NCBI GenBank assembly: GCA_001938485.1
Contig: MQRK01228601.1
Coordinates: 1-64,000 of the forward strand
Source: Girardia tigrina
Lineage: Eukaryota
Reading direction: 5' to 3'
DNA length: 64,000 nucleotides
The notes below the pieces were generated by a model that was not told where the DNA came from, did not search any database, and saw only the letters and a list, made by a program, of their open reading frames with translations. A program made the position numbers and the translations under genes. Positions 792 through 2,074 of this stretch are shown piece by piece (position 1 is the first letter of the stretch; each line of letters starts with the position of its first letter).

Positions 792-2074
792 TGTTCCGCC
801 CGACCCTCATCTTGCCTCGAGAATCTGACGGAGGTAACAGGGTTGCGCAGTGGTTTATTTAGATTTTGCTGGGCCCTTTGAAACATCATAATATTAAGAC
901 TGAATCTCGAATTGTTCGCTACATCGAGTTCAACGGCATTGAAAATGAGAAGAAGCTTATCTTTAGTTAATATGATTATTGGACTCCGTTCAAAGTGCTC
1001 GGACAACGCCAAGATCGCCACCGAGTCGTGCTCGCGCATCACGCAGAAATAACACTGTTTGAGATATTTAATAAAAACGGAAATTGTCTCCTCATACTAT
1101 CGACCGACCATGCGACCGAGTTTGTGATAGATCTCTCCGAGAGATGGGATTACAGCTAATCTCGTAGGGAGATAACTCGGACTTTCGTCCTTTGACTTGA
1201 AATAATCATTGCAAGTATTGATGGCAAGATGCAAGGAGTACGTGTCGTCTACACTGAACAGAGTGCCGATATTCCGAGTGATTAATGTTCTCGTGGTAGG
1301 TCCGGGAGACTTTTCGAGTTGATTTAACAATATATTTAGAATATTTTCTTGTTTTTCTTTTATATCAGCTTTGTTGACGACATTTAATACCTTGTCCGAA
1401 ATTCTCAACCATTCATAGATAAAAAGTGACAGTTTATCGTTTGGTAATTTCACCAATGCACTCTCATTTAAAATTAAACTCTGTGCTAATTCCATTTAAA
1501 TTTGGCTAAGCGGTAATTTGGATTTGTAATTTTAAATGAATTGAACAAATGAGAATTAAGATATATTCACGAAATTGAAATTCTCGGAGTCAATTTTAAA
1601 AAAAATCGTATCATTATCGTAACATATCATTAAAAAAAATCATAATCAAATCTTCCAGAAAAAATAACTTTTATTTTCTATTTACAATCTTCAAAAAGTC
1701 GTCTCAAATATCACCAAAACAATTTGAAATCAAAAATTTTCCAACAACAAACAGTTCATAATTAGTTAATTTAGTACAGTAAAATAATTTTTTTCTTTTT
1801 CAAGGTCAAAAACTTTTTACAATTTCGATAATTTCTTTCTTTTCAAATTTACAAATTCAATTTTTTACATCAAATTTTTCACTATTAATTTTTTTACCAA
1901 CAAAATTTTTTATATACAAAAATAAACAATACAAAAACAAAATAAAATATCATAGATTGTTTTCAAAGTTTTTTTTGAGAATGATGAAAAAGAGAGCGCG
2001 GGATCAATTGATATAAATATACATATATAATTAATGATAATAACAATATAATAACGATAATTGAATCCCGAACA
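792..2074 (-). mobile_element. Solo-LTR-like element E1 (TG...CA) carrying a captured HEATR5B fragment
   Basis: Starts tgttccgcccgacc (792) and ends ttgaatcccgaaca (2074). Flanks gtaac (787-791) and gttac (2075-2079) match at 4 of 5 positions. Both termini align with the copy at 18726-19969. Confidence 0.8.
1052..1495 (-). pseudogene. HEATR5B: HEATR5A/B N-terminal coding fragment (~147 codons, one in-frame TAG at 1097-1099)
   Basis: MELAQSLILNESAL...FIYEWLR...SPGPTTR...KDESPSYLPTRLA...KLGRMVGR*YEETISVFIKYLK matches the recalled HEATR5B N-terminus (MELAHSLLLNEEAL...FIFEWLR...SPGPPTR...YLPTKLA...MGRMLGSAFPETVSNLLKSLK). Confidence 0.9.

Follow-up and report, generated by a model that had tools for sequence, protein, structure and literature searches.

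A BEL/Pao solo LTR of Girardia tigrina holds a spliced HEATR5 5′ end in a frame that sister elements extend to ubiquitin-Gag

The window analysed here is a 64,000-nucleotide stretch of Girardia tigrina DNA (positions 1 to 64,000 of contig MQRK01228601.1). Within it a 1,283 bp unit, which we call E1, occupies positions 792..2074 on the minus strand; it has TGTT...AACA ends, its sharp boundaries are common to sister copies, and it is flanked by a target-site duplication (787..791 on the left and 2075..2079 on the right) whose two copies are identical at 4 of 5 bases. Ends of this kind and a 5-bp duplication are family traits of BEL/Pao retrotransposons. Read along the minus strand, E1 begins with an AT-rich, element-derived and U3-like part (1596..2074), which would be the promoter side and which does not match the host HEATR5 locus over any long stretch. 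It is followed by about 100 nt of captured HEATR5 5′UTR (1496..1595; host positions 35865-35966), the coding part of HEATR5 exon 1 with the host ATG (1370..1495; codons 1-42), HEATR5 exon 2 (1055..1369; codons 43-147), which stops exactly at the host splice donor, a 59-codon linker (878..1054), and a conserved U5-like terminal segment (792..877), which encodes a 28-codon peptide and is open to the LTR end. The minus-strand frame from the ATG at 1495 to position 794, at the end of E1, is 234 codons long and has a single stop, at codon 133 (1097..1099). The original prediction had described the first ~147 codons of HEATR5B, starting at their own ATG and without introns, continued in frame by about 65 unrelated codons to the element end. 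The common frame stands, but the continuation is 87 codons long (59 of linker and 28 of terminal peptide), and within the 792-2074 element the capture additionally includes the 5′UTR.

On sequence grounds E1 belongs to a BEL/Pao retrotransposon family, as a solo LTR whose sense strand is the minus strand, because the ends of its copies, the primer site, the domains of the full elements and the polypurine tract all place it there. Among 82 family 3′ ends in the loci collected there are 33 copies with both ends; 20 of these have a perfect 5-bp duplication, seven have one mismatch and four have two mismatches, and the remaining two have no duplication but have a common downstream primer-site motif, so a DNA transposon with a 5-bp duplication was dropped as a candidate. 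The LTR end joined to the primer-site motif has 46 exact matches (one in the control) and 89 matches with up to 3 mismatches (none in the control), and one 15-base LTR end alone has 299 exact matches. The motif is the complement of the 3′ end of a truncated tRNA-like genomic sequence with a CAT anticodon, which we take to represent an initiator-Met primer tRNA; ARAGORN called no tRNA gene in 9 of 12 such tRNA-like loci. Patterns in which TGG adjoins one or the other end matched 11 and 34 times, with no common flank among the matches listed save two, and these two exceptional loci pointed to a primer site at the other end.

In full elements, E1-type ends either adjoin the primer-binding site or come after the polypurine tract, and ubiquitin, DUF1759, protease, RVT_1 and Peptidase_A17 domains (Pfam) lie downstream of the LTR. 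The element on G000:C211211 has Gag(DUF1759)-protease-RT-RNase H(Peptidase_A17)-integrase in that order and a second LTR. Several sister elements also have a polypurine tract before the 3′ LTR, and two HEATR5-bearing LTRs come after a polypurine tract and a DUF5641 integrase tail; both of these 3′ LTRs adjoin truncated or interrupted internal parts in this fragmented assembly. In three elements the polypurine tract is reached after 4.27-4.41 kb, which leaves no room for an integrase (one of them has an N gap), and Pfam found no integrase in any of the three internal regions that were scanned. The elements L213, L243, L238 and L236 form this integrase-less subfamily, with internal regions of 4.3-4.4 kb in which Gag, protease, RT and RNase H are kept, and one LTR pair in the subfamily is 98% identical. 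In most 5′ LTRs with an E1-like end the last four bases ahead of the primer site are ACCA or ATCA; in most solo LTRs with this kind of end they are AACA. Three other kinds of element were rejected as follows: a Pack-type DNA transposon because the inverted ends are only about 5 bp long, introns have been removed and the ends belong to RT elements; an L1-type processed pseudogene because E1 has only a 5′ end (147 of ~2,000 codons) and no poly(A); and a TRIM because 792-2074 has no suitable internal direct repeat and the whole unit is one LTR.

The host portion of E1 was identified through homologues of its frame, of which HMMER found 165, the best full-length ones being named HEATR5A/5B; the HEATR5 piece had no match in Pfam, PDB or a word-index protein search. 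A full-length homologue spans many exons at G000:C198362, the host HEATR5 gene, and because this is the only PF20210 locus in the genome we prefer the label HEATR5 to the more specific HEATR5B of the original prediction. In the host gene exon 1 has its ATG at 35967 and its end at 36092, and exon 2 occupies 38454-38768. Host intron 1 between them (36093-38453; 2,361 bp, GT..AG) is removed exactly in E1, where exons 1 and 2 (42 + 105, or exactly 147 codons) are joined at 93.2% identity to the host. The loss of an intron, which was to be checked against the native gene, is thus borne out, as is the reading of the TAG as the only stop in the frame and a likely derivative of TCG, since host codon 133 encodes serine. 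The stop is private to E1 (1 of the 38 copies covering codon 133), so the sister copies lacking it that had been proposed do exist. Bordered at both ends by element sequence, lacking a poly(A) tail and having lost an intron, the piece has the properties of an LTR-mediated retrocopy. A genome search with it returned 97 match rows spread over 58 contigs, assembly duplicates among them; the HEATR5 alignment was built from 43 copies, two of which were later removed as allelic, and the copies are 90-95% identical to the host gene. A further spliced HEATR5 5′ copy at L025 (G000:C170068:108700-111500) is only ~69% identical and is split by a 2.3-kb gap, and we regard it as an older or hypermutated capture.

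The original prediction called the sequence after HEATR5 unrelated. The 59 codons that follow exon 2 are also present in LTRs without HEATR5, where a fragment of ERCC1 (Rad10) runs into them without a change of frame; the linker comes from this older subfamily, and HEATR5 exon 2 appears to have taken the place of the ERCC1 part in the parent LTR. Splicing and template switching both fit the HEATR5 3′ junction, because it has 3 nt in common with the parent LTR and is also an exact exon end beside an acceptor-like site. No LTR copy that might have been the splice partner was found in host HEATR5 intron 2, which has short N gaps, nor did the Rad10 matches examined, which are LTR copies or fragments, include the native ERCC1 gene.

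The in-frame junctions had been read as a sign that the chimera was once translated, but is it the HEATR5 peptide or only its reading frame that was kept? In a tree of 37 copies (4 short copies were left out), the changes on shared branches in HEATR5 are 41 nonsynonymous, 13 synonymous and no stops (0/54), and those at the tips are 432 nonsynonymous, 188 synonymous and 29 stops (29/649). Shared branches and tips differ significantly neither in N/S ratio (p = 0.44) nor in the share of stops, of which the shared branches have fewer (p = 0.16), and no purifying selection on the HEATR5 peptide was found in this tree. Because the shared changes are neutral at the amino-acid level, selection appears from these comparisons to act on the frame and not on HEATR5 function, and the product likely did not act as a HEATR5 chimera with an independent role. 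The large common indels of the HEATR5 LTRs keep the frame (-57 in 12-13 copies, -99 in about 10, -3 and +3), and only 13 of the 60 private indels do so. Out-of-frame changes also recur: a 2-bp deletion near the HEATR5 ATG is present in 7 copies, one supported pair among them, and several indels of 1-2 bp or 7 bp are each present in 2-3 copies. No both-ended HEATR5 copy is unbroken (0/27); three copies, E1 included, have one stop each, at different codons. The 5′ junctions of the copies matching exon 1 fall into six classes between -139 and -2, and several other HEATR5 copies start within the coding part. An intronless native gene and a neutrally evolving fragment without sisters had been named as grounds for abandoning the original prediction; the host gene has its intron and sisters exist, but the amino acids are indeed neutral.

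The frame can be examined across the family with cargoes other than HEATR5. We sorted 120 LTR ends into 46 cargo clusters, of which 33 are singletons and some take in flank. From 30 to 110 codons upstream of the LTR end, the density of stops is 4.0 per 100 codons in the frame of the terminal peptide versus 8.7 and 6.4 in the other two, and the antisense frames have 5.7, 5.2 and 7.4. The terminal-peptide frame is the lowest in stops in 29 of the 46 clusters, versus 3 and 12 for the others with 2 ties (p = 1e-5, the clusters being not fully independent). Pfam matches over cut-off were obtained for 6 among 46 proteins in that frame (SRPRB, INTS6, Rad10, ubiquitin, GDI and CRAL_TRIO) and for 2 among 92 in the other two frames (GPI2 and THAP), where the representatives were those longest open in the test frame. 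Two more cargoes, USO1/p115 and DRC7, were named through PDB, and another, which we presume to be PGS1-like, has a match below cut-off only. These family-wide statistics suggest that the chimera was, as had been thought, translated in the past. The USO1 cargo (74 match rows) keeps its 5′UTR and ATG and has lost six introns relative to G000:C234857; it ends mid-exon, so splicing was rejected as the general route of capture. Likewise, capture of 5′ ends was rejected as a general rule because the INTS6, DRC7 and HSP90 pieces are internal fragments and not 5′ ends.

Why the frame is open at the element end is explained by the full elements, in which the frame of 792..877 in 5′ LTRs runs on through the primer-binding site to ubiquitin-Gag. 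We tallied the downstream frame at 38 primer-site loci. Directly behind the primer site, the spacings differ by multiples of 3 in 34 of the 35 scored, and a leader of 42-nt repeats places its anchor at 7 different distances but in one phase in all 12 scored. The first 50 codons behind the LTR have 24, 124 and 32 stops in the three frames (n = 31), so that a second frame is nearly as open. In 12 of 18 cases ubiquitin shares the frame of the LTR, and each of the other two frames accounts for 3; in several elements natural stop-free runs pass over the LTR end into it (for example 53 + 268 and 54 + 292 codons). The ubiquitin-like domain starts with Met in 0/17 cases and ends in Gly-Gly in 14/17; the Pfam ubiquitin match covers positions 1-71 of 72, and the residues just before the Gly-Gly of these tails differ from those of ubiquitin. 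The domain is a candidate cleavage signal that would free Gag after Gly-Gly. Inspection of ~45 HEATR5 loci and of the primer-site loci looked at in this fragmented assembly turned up no HEATR5-bearing LTR with an adjoining primer site, and read-through in the HEATR5 subfamily is for that reason proposed by analogy with its sisters.

Two cases of other coding sequence near ubiquitin were seen. In one subfamily (L356 on G000:C235971, L241 and L190) an HSP90 fragment (Pfam positions ~155-334) lies in frame between the primer site and ubiquitin. At L256 (G000:C29743, ~19250-19450) an OTU-protease-like stretch is directly upstream of a truncated ubiquitin domain; it was found in only this one of the loci compared and was taken as an unrelated insertion. 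The window itself includes, at 6479-13000 on the plus strand, a diverged BEL/Pao element that likewise begins with ubiquitin-Gly-Gly-Gag and has an integrase (H2C2, DUF5641); it is broken by a transposase-like piece at ~6880 and by an N gap. Because this diverged element has the ubiquitin-Gly-Gly-Gag arrangement too, the ubiquitin fusion is older than the E1 family.

The demonstrated features of the family (its LTR identity, the loss of the intron, the amplification of the HEATR5 LTR, the frame common to many cargoes and the ubiquitin-Gly-Gly-Gag layout) can be brought together as follows. E1 carries the spliced 5′ end of HEATR5 in a frame that its sister elements prolong to ubiquitin-Gag, and we consider it probable that this frame was translated as a disposable front that would be cleaved off at ubiquitin. 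Transcription would start in the AT-rich 5′ part, which would put the cargo within R/U5, and the polyprotein frame would begin inside the LTR. Capture would occur at the RNA/cDNA stage, when reverse transcriptase switches template onto a co-packaged host mRNA, or alternatively, for HEATR5, exon 2 may have been spliced onto the acceptor-like site of the parent LTR. Only captures with an open frame would still yield Gag-Pol, so that the frame would be selected and the host amino acids would drift; host deubiquitinases would then cut after Gly-Gly and leave Gag with a fixed N-terminus. A conserved frame with neutral amino acids fits such cleavage, which would make the foreign peptide irrelevant. 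E1 itself would be the product of LTR-LTR recombination and have decayed since. Contigs of public runs, presumed to be RNA, gave mainly host HEATR5, HSP90 and ubiquitin sequence, from which start, strand and level are not readable. A bolder form of the idea, which we hold tentatively and think slightly likelier to fail than to hold, is that this lineage came to rely on the host for its 5′ leader and its start codon: through serial swaps of mRNA ends it would use the ATG of the cargo for its polyprotein and a ubiquitin spacer to trim the foreign peptide, and would have scattered hundreds of promoter-plus-host-exon cassettes.

Gag might instead be initiated from a Met of the internal leader; captured ATGs would then be tolerated in frame only (out-of-frame uORFs would cause Gag repression or nonsense-mediated decay) and the cargo would be a passenger. 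Most leaders do have an in-frame Met upstream of ubiquitin (7 of the 8 elements in which the start of ubiquitin was located), so an LTR ATG is not indispensable for Gag, and the amino-acid neutrality of the HEATR5 piece and the frameshift that recurs at its ATG in 7 copies agree with a passenger. However, one element has 113 open codons without Met from the LTR end to ubiquitin, the spacing in multiples of 3 already holds in the sequence next to the primer site, ahead of every Met of the leader, and all six classes of 5′ junction in the copies matching exon 1 lie upstream of the host ATG; we judge this account unlikely, though it is the strongest of the competitors.

The remaining two accounts seem to us very improbable, and about equally so. 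According to one, derived from the idea of epigenetic conflict that stems from plant work, the cargo acts at the RNA level as a shield, in that pieces of housekeeping genes would make small-RNA silencing of the element costly to the host. The cargoes are indeed conserved housekeeping genes (HEATR5, USO1, ERCC1, INTS6, SRPRB and HSP90), some of them amplified to tens of copies, but a shield needs neither frame nor sense orientation and both are biased, and strongly expressed housekeeping mRNAs would also be the likeliest to be captured by chance. The other is neutral hitch-hiking, with HEATR5 in frame by chance (1 in 3) and its translation never of consequence. For HEATR5 taken singly the neutral N/S ratio, the non-significant deficit of stops, the lack of an intact copy and the failure to find a HEATR5 5′ LTR are what hitch-hiking predicts; against it are the frame bias of the whole family, measured on clusters, the large common indels in frame, the phase-locked leader and the Met-less ubiquitin.

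The ubiquitin-cleaved, host-derived front that we favor has precedents for its separate parts. In the ubiquitin insertions of cytopathic pestiviruses and in ubiquitin-ribosomal protein fusions, a host-cleaved signal sets the N-terminus of the protein that follows; in the E1 family the ubiquitin-like domain is predicted to protect the Gag of a retrotransposon from changes in the host-derived sequence ahead of it. LTR elements are known to capture spliced mRNA in metazoans, including one mosquito BEL case (Tan et al. 2016, PMC5131818), and the retrocopies described in the accessible part of that paper resemble the E1 family in being intronless mRNA pieces with LTR-element sequence on both sides, in forming multi-gene mosaics, in their sense orientation and in their recopying. 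Short microsimilarity at the junctions is reported there, and the HEATR5 3′ junction has its 3 common nt but is also an exact exon end. As far as the same text goes, those retrocopies have discontinuous element flanks, and "in frame" there means relative to the parental gene; in the E1 family, by contrast, the cargo is inside the LTR (and so survives in solo LTRs), has been serially replaced in dozens of subfamilies and is in frame with the element polyprotein, with a ubiquitin-like Gly-Gly domain before Gag. BEL/Pao diversity was reviewed by de la Chaux and Wagner (2011, PMC3118150), and the Gag-protease-RT-RNase H-integrase order and the Peptidase_A17, DUF1759 and DUF5641 domains agree with the portion of their review at hand; the word ubiquitin does not occur in their paper, and the portion at hand does not describe host cargo in LTRs, a ubiquitin-Gag fusion or an integrase-less subfamily of 4.3-4.4 kb. 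Pack-MULEs and gene-capturing Helitrons, as treated in the available sections of Arkhipova and Yushenova (2019, PMC6431247), likewise have common ends with variable host fragments between them, but they are DNA-based, whereas the E1 family has spliced cargo and the LTR ends of an RT-encoding element. We found no description in the literature of serial in-frame host cargo in BEL LTRs with a ubiquitin spacer, although subscription papers, Repbase entries or supplements may hold one.

If correct, the proposed mechanism would explain how host coding sequence can be captured repeatedly without breaking Gag, and it would make gene capture countable: one family would hold dozens of independent events, and a donor, a junction and a frame could be given for every one of them. 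The many solo LTRs with open host-derived frames could then be a source of new genes, of exon shuffling or of small RNAs directed at housekeeping genes. For annotation it matters that the sequences resembling paralogs of HEATR5, USO1 or ERCC1, of which this genome has tens, are LTRs. Three other LTRs of this kind were noticed in the window. A second solo LTR of the E1 family (18726-19969, minus strand) has a perfect 5-bp duplication and a different cargo frame that is open for 169 codons, and it sits in an apparent Gypsy-type element on the minus strand (~17200-22400, labeled by eye). A third copy (36585-37394, minus strand) has an eroded 5′ end and a 136-codon frame that is open from a Met to the end, and the fourth is a decayed LTR 3′ end on the plus strand near 34198.
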